Source of the DNA: a phage | NCBI GenBank assembly: GCA_030393635.1 | Contig: GCA_030393635.1_4352.1 | Length of the DNA stretch: 44,340 nucleotides | Reading direction: 5' to 3' (one strand) | Part shown: positions 231 through 23,016 of the stretch, piece by piece | Position numbering within the stretch: the first letter of the stretch is position 1 | Layout of the letters: each line of letters begins with the position of its first letter | Position numbers and translations under genes: made by a program | The notes under the pieces: generated by a model | Seen by the model: only the letters and a program-made list of their open reading frames with translations | Databases searched by the model: none | Told to the model about the DNA's origin: nothing

Positions 231-259
231 TTGATTTCCCATTATTCGCAATGTATACT
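231..259 (+). promoter_or_regulatory. Sigma70-like promoter for the plus-strand early operon
   Basis: TTGATT (231-236), 17-bp spacer, TATACT (254-259), about 33 nt upstream of the ATG at 292. Confidence 0.45.
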
Positions 260-291
260 TGGTTTCGTTAACTGATAATGAGGGTTTGAGA

Positions 292-462
292 ATGACGCAG
301 AATGAAGTGGCTGAGCGTATCGGGGTTACTCGTCGCACGCTGAATAACTGGTTAAAGAGTGGGAAGTTCCCTGATTGCTGTATTCGCATTATGGGCCGCC
401 GTCAGCCGGGTACGTTCGACCCGGAGAAAGTGGAAGCGTGGATTAAGGAGAATGTGAAATGA
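292..462 (+). CDS. Small HTH DNA-binding protein (MerR/AlpA/excisionase-like fold)
   Basis: ORF 259..462 with ATG at 292 preceded by GAGGG; the EVAERIGVTRRTLNNWLKSGKFP segment reads as a helix-turn-helix. Confidence 0.6.
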   Translation: MTQNEVAERIGVTRRTLNNWLKSGKFPDCCIRIMGRRQPGTFDPEKVEAWIKENVK

Positions 463-692
463 CCGAATTTCAGTCACGCGTATTTACGGCAGTCGTTTCG
501 TTAACACGTAAAAAAGGGTCGTGCAGCGTTATCGACTTGCGCCGTAGTTATTTTAAGTACTATAGTTCAGCCATTATTGAAGGGTCGTTGGAGGTACTGG
601 TTAAATCCGGTATCGTGAAAAATGTTGGCGGGAAATATAGCGCCGTTGCTGAAGTTCGCGGAATGACCGCTACTTTAGAAGACCTGGAATAA
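459..692 (+). CDS. Hypothetical protein with acidic C-terminal TLEDLE tail
   Basis: 77-aa ORF; its ATG overlaps the upstream stop (ATGA); C-terminus is TATLEDLE. Confidence 0.5.
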   Translation: MTEFQSRVFTAVVSLTRKKGSCSVIDLRRSYFKYYSSAIIEGSLEVLVKSGIVKNVGGKYSAVAEVRGMTATLEDLE

Positions 693-751
693 AAGAAAGC
701 CCCGACGCGGTGAACGCCGAGGCCAAATTACTTGCTGAAGGAATACACGAT

Positions 752-2992
752 ATGTCCGATGTGATTTTATCCTACTCGTGGTCCCGTCGCAACGCGCGGG
801 CAGAGAAAAAGGATATAAACGTCAGAACCACACACACAGCAACACTTGACGACCTGAAAGAGTTAATTCAGCCGCTAGATGCTGTTCGTGACGGGATTAA
901 CCCTAAGACTGCCCCCGGCTATATCACAGCCGCGTGCGACTCTATGCACAGCACCGTAAAAGACCCGGAAACCGGCGACTTTAAGCAAGCGCGCAAAGGC
1001 TTCTTCTATCGCTGCGACGCGTCTGTAAGCAAATCGTCGCTGGCGTATCTGGACTTCGACAGTGCGACGCCGGAAGAGTATCAGGAAGCTGTGCGTCTGG
1101 TTAAGCGCAGCCGTAAAGCCATGTGCCTCTACACTACGGCATCGCATACCGACGAATCGCCGCGCTTTCGCGTCGTCATGCCGCTGGTGCGCCCGGTTGA
1201 AGGCGGTGACATCATCCGTGTTCGCCATGGATTACTTGAGCACTTCTTCAAAGGCATGGGCGCTGACCGCAGCGGGTTCACTCTTTCGCAACCGATGTAC
1301 CTGCCGCCGGTCGGCTCTACCGTTATCTGGTCGCGCCGCAACGACCTGATTGACCCGGACGAGTTACTGGAAGGCATCCCGACCGTTGACGTTAGCAGCG
1401 CATCGGATTACCAGATACCGGAAGAACTACGCACCGCGTTTACTGACGCGTTCGAAGCACTGGCGTTCGAGTACGGCGGCATCATGACACCGCGTGGCCT
1501 AAAAATGCCAGCCACACCAGAGCATGCAGAAAACTACAGCGACCCGACGCCGCGTCCGGACGACTTCCTGCTGTGTTTCCCGCGTGAAGGATATGAAGCG
1601 CCGAACGTAACCATGATCCACGACACCGACATTACGGCGACCGAAGGCATGTCGCCGAAAGAGGTGTGGAAATACGCGTGCGATGCGACCGGGCTGCCGT
1701 TCAGTGAAGTCGCTGAGGCAATCGGCTGGGGTGCGCGAGAGTCCGTTTCATGCAGCCTTGACGACCTGGAAGACGACGAGGACCCAGAGGAGGACGAGTT
1801 ACCTGAACCGGTAAAGGCTGATTTTGTCGTCGAGGGGTACATGCCGTCGGATTGTATCTGGGACATCGTGGGGGAATCTGGCACGTACAAATCGTTCTAT
1901 ACGCTGGGGATGATGTACCTGAGCGCCGCCGGATACCGGTTTGCGGGTGCGGATACGCAACGTTGCCACCATTTCTATATTGATGGGGAGGGTGGTGCAG
2001 CTACACGCACCCGTATTGATGCGCTCGCAGCTAAGTATGGCGAGGAAGGTAAAGATTATGTACATGTCATCGATATGGGTGAAGTCGGAAAACTGAAAAG
2101 CCTGATTAAGTTGATGCGTGAAACTGCAGGCGACGAACCAATCGGCATGGTCGCATTCGACACCCTCAACCAGACGCTGGCCCTGACGATTGATAAGTTC
2201 GACGAGAACAGTTCATCGACGGCAATCGGCATGGGTAAAGTTATTGCCATCCTGAAAGAAGTACGTGATGCGACTAAAGCCGCGGTAGGCGTTGTCCACC
2301 ATACGCCGAAGGGCGGAAAGAAAGCCCGTGGTAGCGGGGCGCTGTATGCGGGTGTTGACGTGGAACTGACAATTGAACGTGCAACCGACCGTCAAATAAA
2401 CGTATACCACTCAAAATTTAAGCACGGGCCCCAACAGAAGACCGTTGGCATGGTGCTTGAGTCGGTACAGTTCCGTGAAGCGCCGCCGCCGAAAGAGTAC
2501 CGCGCGGTTGAGTTCCTCGGTAGCACAGAGGAATACGGCCCAATCGTAAACCTCGACCTGCCTGAGCCGCACAAGGCGCTTGTGCTGATGCCGTGGGGCT
2601 TCGAGCCGTTCAAAACTGACGAGGAGAAAGAGCGGGAAGAAGGGCTGACAAAGGAAGGTAAAGAAAACGTAAAGAATGCTGTAAAACGCGGGAAGGATGA
2701 AGGGCGTAAGGAATCAATACTCGCCGCACTGGAAGACCTGCAACAGTCCGATGACACCGGACGAGGTTTTACGCAACGGCAGATAGTGGCGAACTCAGGC
2801 GACCACGCCATCACAAACTACCATCTTGAGAAGATGCTGAAAGACGGTGAGTTGATGCTCGGGTGCGATGTTAACGGTGAAGTTATACCAGGCACATACC
2901 GGATACCGGAAAAGATGGGTGACAGATTAAGGCCAAAGACAATATACGAGCCGAATGAAATGCTGACAGTGACAGAGGAGGATTTGGAATAG
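752..2992 (+). CDS. DNA primase/helicase (N-terminal primase-like region plus RecA-fold ATPase)
   Basis: ORF 710..2992 (GTG at 710; ATG at 752 has GAAGGA 9 nt upstream). Walker A GESGTYKS, Walker B-like VAFDTL, VVHHTPKGG motif; acidic linker DDLEDDEDPEEDE; C-terminal TEEDLE. Confidence 0.75.
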   Translation: MSDVILSYSWSRRNARAEKKDINVRTTHTATLDDLKELIQPLDAVRDGINPKTAPGYITAACDSMHSTVKDPETGDFKQARKGFFYRCDASVSKSSLAYLDFDSATPEEYQEAVRLVKRSRKAMCLYTTASHTDESPRFRVVMPLVRPVEGGDIIRVRHGLLEHFFKGMGADRSGFTLSQPMYLPPVGSTVIWSRRNDLIDPDELLEGIPTVDVSSASDYQIPEELRTAFTDAFEALAFEYGGIMTPRGLKMPATPEHAENYSDPTPRPDDFLLCFPREGYEAPNVTMIHDTDITATEGMSPKEVWKYACDATGLPFSEVAEAIGWGARESVSCSLDDLEDDEDPEEDELPEPVKADFVVEGYMPSDCIWDIVGESGTYKSFYTLGMMYLSAAGYRFAGADTQRCHHFYIDGEGGAATRTRIDALAAKYGEEGKDYVHVIDMGEVGKLKSLIKLMRETAGDEPIGMVAFDTLNQTLALTIDKFDENSSSTAIGMGKVIAILKEVRDATKAAVGVVHHTPKGGKKARGSGALYAGVDVELTIERATDRQINVYHSKFKHGPQQKTVGMVLESVQFREAPPPKEYRAVEFLGSTEEYGPIVNLDLPEPHKALVLMPWGFEPFKTDEEKEREEGLTKEGKENVKNAVKRGKDEGRKESILAALEDLQQSDDTGRGFTQRQIVANSGDHAITNYHLEKMLKDGELMLGCDVNGEVIPGTYRIPEKMGDRLRPKTIYEPNEMLTVTEEDLE

Positions 2993-2999
2993 GGAAAAA

Positions 3000-3022
3000 G
3001 AAAGGGGCGTTAAGCCCCTTCA
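3000..3022. terminator. Hairpin between convergent genes
   Basis: GGGGC-gttaa-GCCCC stem-loop with A-run upstream and TT downstream. Confidence 0.5.
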
Positions 3023-3225
3023 CCAAACGCCAGCCACTTGGCGTCTACTTGCAGCACTTCTGCCAGTCTAAACAGCGTCGCAGGGCGGACGTCCTGAGTT
3101 ACTCCGAGCGCAAGCTGGTTAATTGCGCCCTGGGAAACGCCGGCCAGAACAGCCAGACGGCGCTGGGAGATTCCGAGTTCTTTACGGCGTTGTTCTACAC
3201 GGATGCCTAGTTCAGATGGTTGCAT
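3010..3225 (-). CDS. XRE-family (Cro/CI-type) HTH transcriptional regulator
   Basis: 71-aa ORF; ISQRRLAVLAGVSQGAINQL is a typical XRE HTH; AAGGAG RBS 7 nt upstream of the ATG on the minus strand. Confidence 0.8.
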   Translation of the reverse strand: MQPSELGIRVEQRRKELGISQRRLAVLAGVSQGAINQLALGVTQDVRPATLFRLAEVLQVDAKWLAFGEGA

Positions 3226-3256: not shown

Positions 3257-3318
3257 ATAGTACCATATTAATTATTTTAGAAAAGCCCATTGACATCATG
3301 AATAGTTCGCTATTATAG
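3257..3318. promoter_or_regulatory. Divergent promoter/operator region between the XRE regulator and the small ORF at 3352
   Basis: Minus strand: TACTAT -10 overlapping palindrome AATAG-TACC-ATATT (3256-3269). Plus strand: TTGACA (3290-3295), palindrome AATAG-TTCG-CTATT (3301-3314), -10-like TATAGT. Confidence 0.55.
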
Positions 3319-3351
3319 TGAGCCTATACTAAACGAGAGGAGAGAAGCAAA

Positions 3352-4323: not shown

Positions 4324-4469
4324 CAAGGTACGCGATAATCGTAGAAATAGACGGTAAAGACCAGGAGCATAGTCGCTACGCCCGTTTGGATGAAGCTAGG
4401 TATGTCTTCTATACATTCGGATTCGAACGCAGTTTCAATAATGCGCGTATTGTGGAGATTACGAAATGA
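4320..4469 (+). CDS. Small hypothetical protein
   Basis: In-frame ATG at 4320 with GGGAGAACAGGG upstream; overlaps the upstream stop and is coupled to the next gene. Confidence 0.45.
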   Translation: MTRYAIIVEIDGKDQEHSRYARLDEARYVFYTFGFERSFNNARIVEITK

Positions 4470-5707
4470 TTTTAAAAGAACGCGGTGGCAATAACGATGT
4501 TCACGCCCTACTGTCACCGTCAGGCGCTAAAAAGTGGCTAAGCTGCGCCGCATCACTGGCCTGTGAAAAAGATATTCCTAACACGTCCGGCAAAGCTGCC
4601 GTATTAGGCACAGCTATGCACACCATAGCTGAGATGCACCTTAACCAGTACATCAAAGGTACTGCGTTGCCGTTAGAGCGTGAAGTCGGCGCTTACGTGC
4701 TGGATGAGGGCAAGGGCCAGATTAAGGCGCTAATCAGCCCAATTAAAGACGCGGTACTCATTACGGCGGACATGATTGAGCAGGTGCGCAAGTACACCGA
4801 CTACTGCAAAGCGATTATAGACGTGGCGACTTACGCCAAGCTGGAGATGCGCGTCAATCTTACTGAGGTATTGCATCCGGGGTATGAAGGCGTTGAGACG
4901 TTCGGAACCGCTGACCTTGTTGCCGTTCAGGAACTGGCAAACACCGACGGGCACATGCTCATTATTGGCGACCTGAAAACTGGACGGCATCGTGTCGAAG
5001 CGAAAGAAAACAAGCAGCTTATGCTTTATGCTCTCGGTGTTTATCGCCGACTCAAGAGACGCTATAACATAACAGTTGTTCGTCTGGTTATATTCCAGCC
5101 GTATGCTGGCGGTGCGTCGGAGTGGGACATCTCGGTTGAAGGTCTGGAACTGTTCGCTAAGTTCGCACGGAAACGTGCACTGTTAGCCCTTGATGCATAT
5201 TTCCGGGGCAAGAAGAACCTGAAAGCGTCGGACTTCAGGCCGTCGGTCGATGGTTGTCAGTGGTGTCGGTTCTCTGAGCAATGCGCCGTGCGTACAAAAA
5301 CCGTTAACGCGATACTGGCGGAAGAACTGGAGGGCGGCTTTGCACTCGAACTGACGCCTGAGCAACTCGTAGCTGAGTACGAGAAGTTGCCGCTGTTGCG
5401 ACAGCACATCGACAAGGTTGAAAAAGCTATGGCTGCCGCGCTGCATTCCGGTAAGAAAGTGCCTGGGTACAAACTCGTTGAGGGTAAGATGGGCAACCGT
5501 GCGTGGAAAGATTCCGATGCGGTATTCGAGAAGTACGGCGCTATGTTGCAAAAGGTAGTTCTCATGACGCCGACCGAAGCGGTTAAAGTGATACCGGAAG
5601 AAGAACTGAAAAACTTCATTACCCGTAAGCCGAGCGCACCATGTGTCGCAACGGCAGACGACAAACGTCCTGAGTGGAATCAGGTAACAGAGGAGGATTT
5701 AGAATAA
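4466..5707 (+). CDS. PD-(D/E)XK exonuclease, Cas4/RecB-like with putative Fe-S cysteines
   Basis: 413-aa ORF; N-terminal Cys (WLSCAASLAC) plus C-terminal C-x2-C-x5-C (GCQWCRFSEQC) as in Cas4-type nucleases; C-terminal TEEDLE. Confidence 0.65.
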   Translation: MILKERGGNNDVHALLSPSGAKKWLSCAASLACEKDIPNTSGKAAVLGTAMHTIAEMHLNQYIKGTALPLEREVGAYVLDEGKGQIKALISPIKDAVLITADMIEQVRKYTDYCKAIIDVATYAKLEMRVNLTEVLHPGYEGVETFGTADLVAVQELANTDGHMLIIGDLKTGRHRVEAKENKQLMLYALGVYRRLKRRYNITVVRLVIFQPYAGGASEWDISVEGLELFAKFARKRALLALDAYFRGKKNLKASDFRPSVDGCQWCRFSEQCAVRTKTVNAILAEELEGGFALELTPEQLVAEYEKLPLLRQHIDKVEKAMAAALHSGKKVPGYKLVEGKMGNRAWKDSDAVFEKYGAMLQKVVLMTPTEAVKVIPEEELKNFITRKPSAPCVATADDKRPEWNQVTEEDLE

Positions 5708-5711
5708 AGTG

Positions 5712-5740
5712 TTGACACCTGAATAGTTAGCTATTATATT
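5712..5740 (+). promoter_or_regulatory. Sigma70-like promoter with embedded palindrome, upstream of the SSB gene
   Basis: TTGACA (5712-5717), 17-bp spacer containing AATAG-TTAG-CTATT (5722-5735), TATATT (5735-5740). Confidence 0.6.
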
Positions 5741-5798: not shown

Positions 5799-6425
5799 AT
5801 GGGACTGAAACTGAATCTGCGTAAAGTAAACACTGCATGGGTTAACGTATTCGAACGCGAAAAAGACCGCGAAAACGATGATGGCTCAATCACTAAAGGC
5901 CAGTACAGCGCAACGATTATCCTGCCGCCGGACCATGCTCAAATCGACGCGCTCTACGACACTGTTTACGCTGTAGTTGAGGGAGCGTTAGGCGCAGCCG
6001 CCGCCGAGAAATGGATGAAGTCCAACTACGGCGAAGGTAAGCACATGGATAAATGCGCGATTAAAGACATTGCCGAGCGCGACAATCCGTTTGAAGACTT
6101 CCCGGAAGGCTTCTACTTCAAAGCGAAAGCACAGAAACAGCCGCTGATTGTAACCTCTAAAAAAGGCGAGGCTCAGGTAGAGCAGGACTTCAATGTAGAC
6201 GGCGAACAGATTGAAGGTGAACAGGTTTACAGCGGCTGTGTTGCCAACGTAAGCGTTGAAATCTGGTTCAGCCAGAAATACAAAGTCCTCGGTGTTAACC
6301 TGCTGGCAATTAAATATGTTGGCGAGGGTAAAGCGTTCGGTGGTTCTAAAGTCGCCGCAAGTGTCGACGACCTCGAAGACGACGAAGATGATGAAGCACC
6401 GCGCCGCGAACGTCGTCGCCGTTAA
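5799..6425 (+). CDS. Single-stranded DNA-binding protein (T7 gp2.5-like)
   Basis: 208-aa ORF with acidic DDLEDDEDDE segment near the C-terminus, resembling the gp2.5 tail, followed by a basic RRERRRR terminus. Confidence 0.55.
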   Translation: MGLKLNLRKVNTAWVNVFEREKDRENDDGSITKGQYSATIILPPDHAQIDALYDTVYAVVEGALGAAAAEKWMKSNYGEGKHMDKCAIKDIAERDNPFEDFPEGFYFKAKAQKQPLIVTSKKGEAQVEQDFNVDGEQIEGEQVYSGCVANVSVEIWFSQKYKVLGVNLLAIKYVGEGKAFGGSKVAASVDDLEDDEDDEAPRRERRRR

Positions 6426-6468: not shown

Positions 6469-6636
6469 CTAAGGGTCGAAAATAATGTTTTTCTGTAAGC
6501 ACGTTTATCGCTATATGAAACCGCTTCCGTGGTACGCGGATAAGTACCGGGCCGGATACCGGCATGTGTGGATTTGCCGTGATTGTATGAAAATAAGATT
6601 AAGCGAAACGAAGGCACTGGATTTAAGGAAAAAGAA

Positions 6637-8838
6637 ATGAGCTACTTATACCTGGACTTTGAAACATTCTCCGAAGCCGATTTAAAGAAAGTCGGTTCCT
6701 ACGCTTACGCCGAACATCCAACTACCGAAGTGCTTATCTGTACCTATGCTTTCGATGACGAGCCTGTGCAGGTATGGGATTGCACCGACGGCAGCGACAT
6801 GCCGGGCGATTTGCACCGCGCGTTACGCCGTCTGGTTAAGCCAAACAGCCGCATCAAGATGGTGTGGCACAACGGCTCAATGTTCGATCGCCTCATCATG
6901 AAGCACTGCTGGGGTTTTGGTATTCCGGTAAGCAACACCATTGATACTATGATTTGGGCGTTTCGTCACGCGCTGCCGGGTTCACTTGATGCGTTATGTG
7001 AAGTGCTGGGTGTATCCGCGGACAATGCAAAAGATAAACGCGGTAAGGCACTGATTCAACGTTTTTCTAAACCGACACCGAAGAACTACAAAATCCGCCG
7101 CTACACCGCCGAAACACACCCGGACGAGTGGGCGCTGTTCATCAAGTACGCCGTGAGCGACATCACTGCTATGCGTGAGGTCTTCCATAAGCTGCCGCGG
7201 TGGGGTAACTCCGAGTTCGAAGACCGTGTACTGGAACTTGACCAGTTAATCAATGACCGTGGGTTTAAGGTTGACGTTGCGCTGGCAGAAGCCGCTATTG
7301 AAGCCGTGGAGAAACACAAAGCGCAGTTACAGGAAGAAGCCCAACGCAAATACGGCGGCTCGCTTACCGGTAAGGACTTTCTGCCGATTCTGCGTGAACT
7401 CGCACCCGCGCACCGCATCCACAACGCGCAGAAGTCAACGCTTAACGACCTGCTGGCAGATGATGACTTACCAGACGACGCCCGCACGATTATCGAAATG
7501 CGCCTCGGGGCTGCGTCAACAGCGTCCACGAAATATAACCCGCTGCTGTTGGGCCGCTCGTCTGACGACCGTCGCCGCGGCTGCTTGCAGTACGGTGGGG
7601 CGAAACGGACTCTGCGATGGGCGGGTAAAGGCTTTCAGCCGCAGAACCTGGCGCGCGGGTACTATCACGATGATGAACTGGATAAAGGCATTTCTGCGCT
7701 ACTTAAAGGTCGTGCTCATCGCCGTTTTGACGTAGCCAAGCTGACGGCATCGACGGTTCGTAGCTGCATTATCCCAGAGGCAGGGCATAAGTTTGTCGTC
7801 GCCGATTACTCTAACGTTGAAGGCCGTGGGCTTGCGTGGCTGTCGGGCGAAGAAACCGCGCTTGATACGTTCCGCGCCGGACTGGATATTTACTGTGTAA
7901 CCGCGGGCAAGATGTTCGGTATGGACCCTGATGACATTAAGAAAAACTTCAAGGAAATCAGACAGATAGGCAAGGCCTGCGAGCTTGGCCTCGGCTATGA
8001 GGGAGGCGTCGGAGCATTCGTTACGTTCGCTAAAAACTTAGGTCTTGACCTTATTGAGATGGCAAAAACAATGGACGGTACTTTTCCTGATCATATATGG
8101 GCGGCTACCGCACGTGGTTATGAATGGGCGCGTATCCAGGAAGCAAAGCGACCCCCGCATCCTGGTGAAAAGGACGACAGACCATCGTATATTCTGGACA
8201 AGAAAGTGTGGCGCACATGCGACGCAATCAAGCGTATGTGGCGTGAGTCTCATCCGGAAACAGTAGCTTTCTGGTGTGACCTTAAAGACGGAATTTTAGC
8301 CGCTGTTCGTAATCCTGGTCGTGAATTTTGGGCAGGGGCACACTTGCGCAGGAATGGGGAAAGGGCTATCCGCATATGGCGCACCGTAGAAAACGATTCA
8401 TCCGGTAGGAAAGTTCCAGGTTGGTGGCTGTGTATGGAGTTGCCGTCAGGCCGTATCCTTTCGTATCCGGGAATCGGAGTTAGCGTGACAAAGGAAACAG
8501 ACGAAGACGGACGGGTAAACACGAATGTGCGAATCAAGTATCAGGGTGAAAACCAGTTAACCCGCCAATGGACTACCCTGTACACACACGGCGGCAAAGC
8601 CTGTGAAAACATTGTTCAGGCGCTGTGCCGTGATTTGCTGGCTAATGCCCTGCTGAACGTAGAAGCAAACGGCTACCCGATTGTGCTTCATGTTCACGAT
8701 GAAATTATCTGCGAGACGCCAGATTTACCGGAATACAATGTCGCAGAGCTTGAGCGATTGATGTGCGAATTACCGGAATGGGCTGAGGGGTTCCCTCTTG
8801 TGGCAGAAGGTGCGGAGATGAAGCGTTATGCCAAGTAA
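6637..8838 (+). CDS. Family-A DNA polymerase with N-terminal 3'-5' exonuclease
   Basis: ORF 6583..8838; ATG at 6637 after AAGGAAAAAG; Exo I-like LDFETFS; typical Pol I length and layout. Confidence 0.85.
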   Translation: MSYLYLDFETFSEADLKKVGSYAYAEHPTTEVLICTYAFDDEPVQVWDCTDGSDMPGDLHRALRRLVKPNSRIKMVWHNGSMFDRLIMKHCWGFGIPVSNTIDTMIWAFRHALPGSLDALCEVLGVSADNAKDKRGKALIQRFSKPTPKNYKIRRYTAETHPDEWALFIKYAVSDITAMREVFHKLPRWGNSEFEDRVLELDQLINDRGFKVDVALAEAAIEAVEKHKAQLQEEAQRKYGGSLTGKDFLPILRELAPAHRIHNAQKSTLNDLLADDDLPDDARTIIEMRLGAASTASTKYNPLLLGRSSDDRRRGCLQYGGAKRTLRWAGKGFQPQNLARGYYHDDELDKGISALLKGRAHRRFDVAKLTASTVRSCIIPEAGHKFVVADYSNVEGRGLAWLSGEETALDTFRAGLDIYCVTAGKMFGMDPDDIKKNFKEIRQIGKACELGLGYEGGVGAFVTFAKNLGLDLIEMAKTMDGTFPDHIWAATARGYEWARIQEAKRPPHPGEKDDRPSYILDKKVWRTCDAIKRMWRESHPETVAFWCDLKDGILAAVRNPGREFWAGAHLRRNGERAIRIWRTVENDSSGRKVPGWWLCMELPSGRILSYPGIGVSVTKETDEDGRVNTNVRIKYQGENQLTRQWTTLYTHGGKACENIVQALCRDLLANALLNVEANGYPIVLHVHDEIICETPDLPEYNVAELERLMCELPEWAEGFPLVAEGAEMKRYAK

Positions 8839-21885: not shown

Positions 21886-23016
21886 ATGGCCCGGAAGAAA
21901 ATAACCGACGAACAATTACAGGAAGAATTGAACGCCGGAGTTAAAACTATCGATATAGCCCGTAAATATGGCATCTCAGACCGCGTTATTCGTATCCGTA
22001 AAGCGAAGCTGGCTAAGAAAGGCGTAGGCCACGGGCGCGACGTTAGCCACCTTGTCCCGGACGGCTACAAGATTAAAGGAACGTCGTCACTTGTAGACGA
22101 GTTCGGCAACACTAAGTTGCAATGGGTTAAGACCGATACTGACGCCGAACGTCAGGTCGAGTTAATGAAAGCCGTAATTGAGGGCATGAAGTCAGAGATT
22201 ACGCCCGTTGCTCCTGTTAAAGCCACCCGTTCCAAACGCGACGATAAACTACTCAATCTTTACACCGTGTCTGACTTTCATCTCGGTATGCTGGCCTGGG
22301 CCGACGAGAGCGGCGACGACTGGGATATGAAAATCGCGGAGGGCCTGTTCTCCCGATGGTTCGACGAGGCGTTTCAGAAAGCGCCGGACGCTGGGACCGG
22401 AGTTATTAACCTGCTAGGCGACTTCGCGCACTTCGATAGTCTGGTTGCCGTTACACCTGCAAGCGGTCACGCTCTTGACGCCGACACCCGTTATCAGAAA
22501 CTTGTCCGCTACATGATTCGTATGGTCCGCCGTGTTGTCGATATGGCGCTGGTTAAGCATAAAACTGTTCGCTTGCTTATTGTGCAAGGGAACCACGACG
22601 AAAGCGGAATGATTTGGTTAGCTGAGATGTTCAGTACGCTGTACGACAATGAGCCTCGTGTGTTCGTCGATACGTCGCCGGATGTTTACAAGATGGTGCA
22701 ACACGGCAAAACGACGCTGTTCTTTCATCACGGCCATAAGGCGCGATTCGACGCTATCGAACCGGTTATGATTGCCAAGTTCCGCAAAGCGTTCGGCGAG
22801 AGTGTTTACAGCTACGCCCACGTAGGCCACCTGCACCACCAGAAGGTTGTAGAAAGCCGTAACATGATTGTTGAGCAACACCGCACCTTAGCGGCCAAAG
22901 ACGCCTACGCCTCCCGTGGCGGATGGATGTCGGGCCGTAGTGCAAATGTAATTACTTATAGCGCCGAATACGGCGAGGTCGCGCGTTTAACTATTTCACC
23001 GGAGATGCTGGGATGA
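21886..23016 (+). CDS. Calcineurin-like metallophosphoesterase with N-terminal HTH
   Basis: 376-aa ORF; metal-binding GNHDE, FHHGHKA and HVGHLHH motifs; N-terminal IDIARKYGISDRVIRIRK HTH-like segment. Confidence 0.65.
   Translation: MARKKITDEQLQEELNAGVKTIDIARKYGISDRVIRIRKAKLAKKGVGHGRDVSHLVPDGYKIKGTSSLVDEFGNTKLQWVKTDTDAERQVELMKAVIEGMKSEITPVAPVKATRSKRDDKLLNLYTVSDFHLGMLAWADESGDDWDMKIAEGLFSRWFDEAFQKAPDAGTGVINLLGDFAHFDSLVAVTPASGHALDADTRYQKLVRYMIRMVRRVVDMALVKHKTVRLLIVQGNHDESGMIWLAEMFSTLYDNEPRVFVDTSPDVYKMVQHGKTTLFFHHGHKARFDAIEPVMIAKFRKAFGESVYSYAHVGHLHHQKVVESRNMIVEQHRTLAAKDAYASRGGWMSGRSANVITYSAEYGEVARLTISPEMLG

Follow-up and report, generated by a model that had tools for sequence, protein, structure and literature searches.

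The 44,340-nucleotide phage contig GCA_030393635.1_4352.1 (assembly GCA_030393635.1; called the window here, in its full length) encodes a 413-amino-acid protein at 4466..5707 on the + strand (413 codons and a stop) that is most probably a Mg2+-dependent nuclease of the RecB family, stabilized by an iron staple, belonging to the DUF2800 family and acting within the replication and recombination module of the phage. The probability of this reading is put at about 0.8. The gene is supported by the open reading frame (ORF) call and by matches in both Pfam and PHROG. The original prediction, made from the letters of the sequence, had placed a Cas4-like PD-(D/E)XK exonuclease with a putative iron-sulfur (Fe-S) cysteine cluster at this location, and its coordinates and strand were exact.

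Membership in the DUF2800 family (PF10926) is unambiguous. The Pfam model matches at full length, model positions 1–368 of 368 against protein residues 13–402, with an E-value of 3.7e-65 and a score of 221 bits relative to a gathering cut-off of 21. The PD-(D/E)XK assignment was borne out by this match and by PDDEXK_1, the family of AddB/AdnA-type nucleases, which matches residues 16–273 (7e-10). PHROG 69, annotated "exonuclease", also matches (7e-119), and a scan of the protein against NCBIfam gave nothing relevant. The family is large, with matches at E<=1e-3 in 10,977 clusters (50% identity), and a homologue is found in 1,421 phage records, with hosts that include Salmonella, Escherichia, Streptococcus, Bacteroides, Staphylococcus, Paenibacillus, Rhodobacter and Liberibacter. 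A protein 100% identical to the nuclease is present in nr as "DUF2800 domain-containing protein", and the DNA of the region is ~90% identical to Kagunavirus-type siphophages of Escherichia (such as fFiEco03, M01, K1G and Bas75). In the records of such phages the gene is labelled "putative nuclease", "PD-(D/E)XK nuclease superfamily protein", "exonuclease" or "DUF2800 domain-containing protein". As a representative of a family with many members the protein is ordinary, and its annotation as a nuclease predates this analysis.

The residues expected of a RecB-type active site are conserved in the homologues aligned. The nuclease domain (amino acids ~13–285; 4502..5320, + strand) contains D150 (4913–4915), the (D/E)xK motif D169-L-K171 (D169, 4970–4972; K171, 4976–4978) and the QxxxY motif Q184-LML-Y188 (Q184, 5015–5017; Y188, 5027–5029), as well as H52 (4619–4621) and E127 (4844–4846). 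Conservation was determined in two sets of sequences: an alignment of the query with 145 representatives (n=146; 31–59% identity), and an independent set of 82 genome-derived loci (the window, phage HK578 and 80 loci from IMG/VR), located with a 10-sequence alignment. H52, D150, D169, K171, Q184 and Y188 are invariant in both sets, and position 127 is always E or D.

The protein has seven cysteines – residues 27, 33, 114, 264, 267, 273 and 393. Four of these, C27, C264, C267 and C273, are present in every sequence examined (146/146 and 82/82), so that the conservation among homologues on which the prediction of a cluster had been made to depend is complete. The other three are replaced in the 146-sequence alignment: C33 mostly by L or M, C114 by V or I, and C393 by T or S. 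Cys27 is encoded at 4544..4546 and the triad at 5255..5284, both on the + strand. The original prediction had described one N-terminal cysteine and a C-terminal C-x2-C-x5-C motif. There are in fact two cysteines near the N-terminus, of which only C27 is conserved; the motif is exact (C264-QW-C267-RFSEQ-C273), but it is C-terminal with respect to the nuclease domain, with ~140 residues still to follow in the protein. Eight of the 82 loci depart from the exact spacing (C-x4-C-x5-C, C-x2-C-x7-C or C-x2-C-x9-C). These were considered as counter-evidence and rejected as such, as the alignment shows them to be spacing variants in which all four cysteines are kept. Insertions between the cysteines are tolerated but the cysteines themselves are fixed, which is the pattern expected of metal ligands.

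A structural model agrees with these alignments. The AlphaFold2 model, built from a 90-sequence alignment, has a mean predicted local distance difference test score (pLDDT) of 93.4 and a predicted template modelling score of 0.86, with disorder confined to residues 1–10. In the model C27 ends a helix at 18–26, and C264–C273 are placed around the helices 261–265 and 274–289. The closest structural match is AdnA (Foldseek 5.6e-6; second score 14.9, over 216 residues at 3.2 Å), followed by Dna2 (3.7e-5; 12.5) and the Argonaute-associated Cas4-family nuclease ACE1 (4.9e-5; 10.3). Weaker matches are Cas4 of type I-C (4.7e-4; 9.1), RecE (3.2e-4; 9.4), AddB (2.7e-4; 8.4) and Exo5 (2.7e-4; 8.2); the Cas4 protein SSO0001, absent among the Foldseek matches listed, has a second score of 9.9. 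Lambda exonuclease is matched at 1e-2 (second score 8.4), ~1,000-fold more weakly than AdnA. The modelled nuclease is closest to AdnA, Dna2, ACE1 and Cas4, all of them Fe-S "iron-staple" nucleases. A reading as a nuclease of the lambda-exonuclease or YqaJ type was also tried and rejected, on the closest fold and on the lack of Fe-S cysteines in that type. The earlier claim that the arrangement is of the Cas4/AddB type rather than the lambda type stands as far as resemblance goes, and fails as far as the Cas4 family models are concerned.

A search of the PDB with the single sequence found no match, and a profile search was needed to reach ACE1 (9IAC, 2.6e-4) and AdnA (6PPU, 5.9e-4). In the profile alignments the triad falls on "CRYCPFTSIC" of ACE1, within the significant match. 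C27 falls on the cysteine of "LTDCP" in AdnA and the triad on "CANCPVRSSC", the latter being a segment that is not significant alone. ACE1 binds an Fe4S4 cluster, the "iron staple", through the cysteines of this same motif, and single-stranded DNA (ssDNA) threads through a narrow channel to its buried active site (PMC12094033); the Fe-S cluster of AdnA is also documented in published work. By analogy with Cas4, AddB and AdnA, the four invariant cysteines almost certainly hold an Fe-S cluster. The prediction of a cluster is sound and follows directly from the iron-staple pattern, with 4Fe-4S as its most likely type. No statement of an Fe-S cluster in DUF2800 was found in the searchable literature.

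Evidence of activity comes from an orthologue. Bas14_0045 ("B14T"), the DUF2800 protein of a Dhillonvirus, is the phage trigger of a type IX retron (preprint 10.64898/2026.07.14.737667). Its purified nuclease domain, a proteolysed fragment of residues 18–295, cuts both strands of the retron multicopy single-stranded DNA at the base of the stem-loop. The D177A/K179A mutant is inactive, and Bas14 phages that escape the retron carry missense or truncating mutations; the C-terminal part of B14T is called disordered (10.64898/2026.07.14.737667). Gp41 of the Dhillonvirus HK578 is 45% identical to the nuclease of the window; its GDLKTG motif contains D177 and K179, which identifies D169 and K171 of the window protein as the same residues as the catalytic pair of B14T. 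Metal-dependent nuclease activity is accordingly to be expected of the window protein by analogy with this orthologue.

The replication module that had been proposed around the nuclease is also present. The upstream gene for a 760-amino-acid replicative helicase-primase (710..2992, + strand) matches AAA_25 and phrog_3228 (1.5e-301). Downstream, the gene at 5799..6425 (+ strand) encodes an ssDNA-binding (SSB) and annealing protein of the gp2.5/Enc34 type (Pfam Enc34_ssDNA-bd, 3.6e-15; phrog_112, 3e-42), and the gene at 6583..8838 (+ strand) encodes a family A DNA polymerase, PolA (Pfam DNA_pol_A and DNA_pol_A_exo1; phrog_17). By Pfam, this polymerase includes a 3'-5' exonuclease domain but lacks the 5'-3' one. 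Among the 82 loci the SSB gene adjoins the nuclease gene in 81, PolA is present in 56 and the helicase-primase in 37. A duf2800-gp2.5-polA module was reported to be widespread in phages of both Gram-positive and Gram-negative bacteria in a 2021 survey (PMC8093625).

The less ordinary parts of the protein, and those worth following up, are its orphan C-terminal domain and its tail. The C-terminal domain (amino acids ~298–405; 5357..5680, + strand) is conserved, of unknown fold, and invariant or nearly so at K336, R345, W347, D399 and R401, most of them basic or aromatic residues. It has a pLDDT of 81–97 in the full model and of 92 when modelled alone, and no structural relative of the folded domain was found. 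It is followed by the acidic tail VTEEDLE (amino acids 407–413; 5684..5704, + strand). Across the family the protein ends in a conserved ...AP..DKRP... segment and then an acidic-hydrophobic sequence that reads DDDL or EEDL when the relatives are close and DDFE(D)L when they are distant; the C-terminus of 118 of the 120 close homologues is [VA][TSA]EEDLE. The C-terminal domain and the tail most likely attach the enzyme to replication proteins.

The original prediction had noticed a shared EEDLE tail, and the sharing was confirmed. The helicase-primase ends in an identical VTEEDLE (2969..2989, + strand), and a third copy of the motif, ATLEDLE, ends the 77-amino-acid ORF at 459..692 (+ strand), a member of an uncharacterized phage family (phrog_5169) just upstream of the helicase-primase gene. 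An identical seven-residue C-terminus in two of ~60 proteins is far beyond chance. In HK578 the two tails have changed in step relative to those of the window, to ...EATDEDLKN in the nuclease and ...SATDDDLKD in the helicase-primase, and in Bas75 they are VTEGDLE and VTEEDLE. The SSB protein of the window has the acidic run DDLEDDEDDE followed by a basic end. In the Kagunavirus and Dhillonvirus phages, where the SSB protein has such an Arg-rich end, it is the helicase-primase and not the SSB protein that matches the nuclease tail.

In more distant loci, the nuclease tail follows the tail of the SSB protein of its own genome. Examples, nuclease first, are SDMI and ADMI (L007), EGLV and EGLV (L020), DDFM and EDFM (L044), EDLV and DDLV (L002), and ADLI and EALI (L029). 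The within-genome similarity of nuclease and SSB tails is 1.74, 2.90 and 3.73 over the last three, four and six residues, compared to −1.15, −0.27 and −0.78 in shuffled pairings, and none of 10,000 shuffles reached the observed values. The tails of PolA and of the SNF2 helicase, used as controls in the permutation test, gave no signal. When the loci were de-replicated to one per nuclease clade (39 clades), 0–15 of 20,000 shuffles reached the observed values. In a conservative comparison with the nearest relative having a different SSB tail, the nuclease tail is closer to the SSB tail of its own genome in 48 cases and to the other in 27 (six residues, p=0.01). With shared ancestry controlled, the co-variation remains a real effect, of moderate size.

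Several further observations were made on these tails. The Arg-rich end of the window SSB protein is APRRERRRR (6399–6422), after the acidic run, and the same is seen in HK578 and Bas75. A terminal R is found in just 3 of 81 related SSB proteins, the others having the acidic-hydrophobic end usual for SSB tails. The tail motif also has internal copies, SLDDLEDDEDPEED in the helicase-primase (amino acids 349–362; ~1754–1795) and SVDDLEDDEDDEA in the SSB protein (amino acids 188–200; ~6360–6398), both in likely linker or tail regions, and HK578 gp41 (32834–34261 of L001, minus strand) has an internal TATDEDLGDDE in a low-complexity linker. Across diverse loci (L001–L081) the tails of PolA (..GFExYRYRKD) and of the SNF2 helicase (..LLEAMKRK..) are conserved and basic, opposite in charge to the acidic tails. 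One exception is L041, in which the SNF2 tail LEDLVG matches the SSB tail DDDLVG.

There are precedents for acidic tails of this kind in proteins related to the SSB of the window. Polymerase and helicase are both bound by the acidic tail of T7 gp2.5, which is also a competitor of ssDNA for the groove of the oligonucleotide-binding fold (PMC10359462). In a crystal of the Enc34 SSB protein, the tail of one molecule is accommodated in the concave sheet of its neighbour, with 842 Å2 buried (PMC5686142). A matching tail on a nuclease is mentioned in neither of these papers, and no description of a docking tail shared by nuclease and SSB protein was found for this module in the literature. We tentatively suggest, as a possibility that falls somewhat short of even odds, that the tail is a co-evolving docking peptide common to the nuclease and the SSB protein (in Kagunavirus and Dhillonvirus, to the nuclease and the helicase-primase), and that these proteins compete for one receptor site in the replisome, as a switch that hands over between replication on one side and recombination or the processing of flaps on the other. 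Candidate receptors are the groove of the SSB protein, the polymerase and the nuclease's own C-terminal domain (K336/R345/W347/R401).

Taken together, these features suggest a mechanism. Core catalysis would be Mg2+-dependent and carried out by D150, D169-x-K171 and Q184xxxY188. The cluster, most likely 4Fe-4S, would be held by Cys27 of the N-terminal helix together with Cys264/267/273, where the domain ends, and would fasten the beginning and end of the domain to each other; as judged from AdnA, ACE1 and Dna2, this may form an arch or channel that admits ssDNA to a buried active site. The substrate is predicted to be ssDNA at or near junctions of single strand and duplex – 5' tails, flaps and the bases of stems. 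The adjacent gp2.5-like SSB/annealase and the family A polymerase are the probable partners, and the role may be end resection for recombination-dependent replication or repair, possibly also removal of 5' flaps or primers. The C-terminal domain and acidic tail would tether the enzyme to the replication machinery. With a tail that is the same as that of the helicase-primase here, and SSB-like in distant relatives, these proteins may alternate at one docking site. The family, the fold, the invariant residues, the gene context, the co-variation of the tails and the activity of an orthologue are shown by the data; the presence and type of the cluster, the polarity on the substrate, the docking partner and the biological role are predictions.

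Some of the observations weigh against this reading of a docked, iron-staple nuclease, and they are given here with the alternatives that they favour. The four cysteines might bind structural zinc or a [2Fe-2S] cluster, either of which is a possible occupant of the same four-cysteine site, with fold and function otherwise unchanged. The only biochemical study of the family, that of B14T, mentions no iron, cysteines or colour, in particular none in the purification; the cysteine spacing varies among relatives (C-x4-C, x7, x9), which implies some freedom in geometry; and Cas4 Pcal_0546 has a [2Fe-2S] cluster on the same four-cysteine layout (PMC4176176). Zinc or [2Fe-2S] nevertheless seems distinctly unlikely, as Fe-S clusters are present in AdnA and ACE1, the nearest relatives whose structures have been solved, that of ACE1 being Fe4S4. 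AddB, Dna2, Exo5 and SSO0001 are 4Fe-4S enzymes as well. Far less probable still is a genuine Cas4 that acts on CRISPR, either by putting host-derived spacers into the host array or by some other anti-CRISPR route. A single homologue in the phage records is annotated "Cas4 family exonuclease", and there is a published link between "Cas4-like" proteins of phages and the acquisition of spacers, a role proposed for those of Campylobacter phages (PMC4804229). Strictly speaking the window protein is no Cas4, as the Cas4 family models do not match it: neither Pfam PF01930 (Cas_Cas4) nor NCBIfam cas4 does so even at E<=10. Its best matches in the defence libraries are weak (DruK, 3e-5; PADLOC "Aga_Cas4-like_Nuc", an Argonaute-associated Cas4-like model, 6e-4). 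It has a domain that Cas4 lacks and is double the size, and the fold closest to it is AdnA, not Cas4. Its gene sits with those for SSB and PolA and not with cas genes; no association with cas1/cas2 or a CRISPR array was found, the neighbours being replication genes in a phage genome. The genuine-Cas4 reading was rejected on these tests of membership. "Cas4-like" is a fair description of the build of the nuclease domain only, and "AdnA/AddB-like DUF2800 nuclease" is a more accurate filing.

The alternatives for the tail and for the role of the enzyme are less remote. The tails could be similar with no docking role, through general selection for acidic disordered ends or through recent gene conversion of the tail-coding segments. 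Acidic tails are common among replication proteins, and the tail-coding stretches 2972–2992 and 5687–5707 share 20 of 21 nucleotides (ACAGAGGAGGATTT[G/A]GAATA[G/A]), including a rare TTR Leu codon, which may reflect recent gene conversion or chance. The co-variation also weakens under strict de-replication, where 15 clades give p ~0.006–0.03 only, and the nearest-neighbour comparison over four residues is modest (42 to 27, p=0.046). Against such an explanation, nuclease and SSB protein of one genome agree specifically in their terminal hydrophobic residues (DMI/DMI, GLV/GLV, DFM/DFM), the PolA and SNF2 controls have no signal, and HK578 has no such sharing of nucleotides. A cause at the DNA level, whether gene conversion or a Shine-Dalgarno-like GAGGAGG signal, is not favoured: the HK578 pair and the 77-amino-acid ORF use different codons, so the constraint on the tail acts at the protein level. 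Similarity with no docking role is judged unlikely. The tail may, on the other hand, pack in cis on the C-terminal domain rather than be a free docking peptide, as it has a pLDDT of 89–92 and a short helix at 409–412 even in the domain-only model. Mutual information between the tail and columns of the C-terminal domain is slightly raised (mean z 4.3 versus 3.0; 15 of the top 40 columns in this domain versus 10.7 expected), values that are confounded by column variability and phylogeny. As for the role, the main job of the enzyme might be Dna2-like trimming of 5' flaps and RNA primers in lagging-strand synthesis, as a component of the replisome and not a recombination exonuclease. This idea has some support because PolA lacks a 5'-3' exonuclease domain and Bas75 has no annotated flap endonuclease (FEN) or RNase H, only an exonuclease of the Mre11/SbcD type and a Holliday-junction resolvase. 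Dna2 is moreover the second-best structural match, the replicative helicase-primase carries the same tail, and B14T cuts at the base of a stem. Some of the Bas14 escapers carry truncations (10.64898/2026.07.14.737667), which makes the orthologue dispensable in the laboratory and argues against an essential role in the replisome, although host Pol I could compensate for its loss; and an exonuclease/annealase pair would fit the classification of the gp2.5-like partner among single-strand annealing proteins. We regard flap trimming as the main job as rather doubtful, and prefer the reading of a RecB-family nuclease of the replication and recombination module.

A helix-turn-helix (HTH) protein is encoded at 259..462, and an HTH repressor at 3010..3225, in the opposite orientation. 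Three small ORFs lie between the repressor gene and the nuclease gene; the ATG of the nuclease overlaps the stop codon of the upstream 69-amino-acid ORF (ATGA), with GGAG 8 nucleotides 5' of the start. Further downstream of PolA are genes for a cytosine methylase and the SNF2 helicase. A sigma-70-like promoter, TTGACA-17-TATATT (5712..5740, + strand), lies between the nuclease and SSB genes, beginning 5 nucleotides past the nuclease stop codon; it rests on an 11/12 consensus match only. A second 11/12 match is found at 3290–3319 (+ strand), ahead of the operon of small ORFs and nuclease. Between the convergent helicase-primase and repressor genes is a GC-rich hairpin (3000–3021) with T and A runs on its two sides, a likely bidirectional terminator that overlaps the 3' end of the repressor gene. 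The 376-amino-acid ORF at 21886–23016 (+ strand) is equal in size to the Mre11/SbcD-type "DNA repair exonuclease" of Bas75 (376 amino acids). If it is such an enzyme, for which the size match is the only indication, the phage has a second, unrelated nuclease.

These results have some practical consequences. In annotation, "RecB-family iron-sulfur (iron-staple) nuclease, DUF2800" can replace "hypothetical protein", and "Cas4" is misleading and best avoided. Sequenced phages that carry the module of nuclease, gp2.5-like SSB protein and PolA number well above one thousand, and their hosts are both Gram-negative and Gram-positive. Those who purify DUF2800 proteins, including B14T, should expect an oxygen-sensitive cluster and retain the C-terminal domain. 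Should the tails prove to be a docking peptide that these proteins have in common, the wiring of the module would follow a simple and testable rule, and such a rule might help to explain why defence systems sense components of the module.

Compared to known nucleases, the window protein is in fold most like AdnA of mycobacterial AdnAB (PDB 6PPU and 9NP6). The nuclease of AdnA is the C-terminal domain of a 1,046-amino-acid helicase-like subunit in a heterodimeric motor, whereas the phage nuclease stands alone with no motor and differs in its C-terminal domain and tail. AddB and Dna2 are likewise fused to helicase domains, and the sequence identity to AddB, Dna2 and Exo5 is 11–15%. Relative to the Cas4 proteins (SSO0001 and type I-C Cas4) and ACE1, the phage nuclease is twice as long, and the genes around it belong to a replication module, none of them cas or Argonaute genes. 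Nucleases of the lambda exonuclease, RecE and YqaJ type lack Fe-S cysteines and assemble into toroidal oligomers. B14T, of an orthologue group at ~45% identity, has the same D-x-K pair and the same module of nuclease, gp2.5-like SSB protein and PolA; the window nuclease lacks the ~55-residue low-complexity linker of the Dhillonvirus orthologue, and Fe-S ligands and a folded C-terminal domain have not been described for B14T. In T7 gp2.5 and gp4 and in Enc34 ORF6, short acidic C-terminal peptides bind a common partner or the SSB groove, and the tails here may do likewise, the SSB protein of the window being itself of the Enc34/gp2.5 family. In T7 such tails are found on the SSB protein and the helicase-primase – here, the nuclease carries a matching tail.

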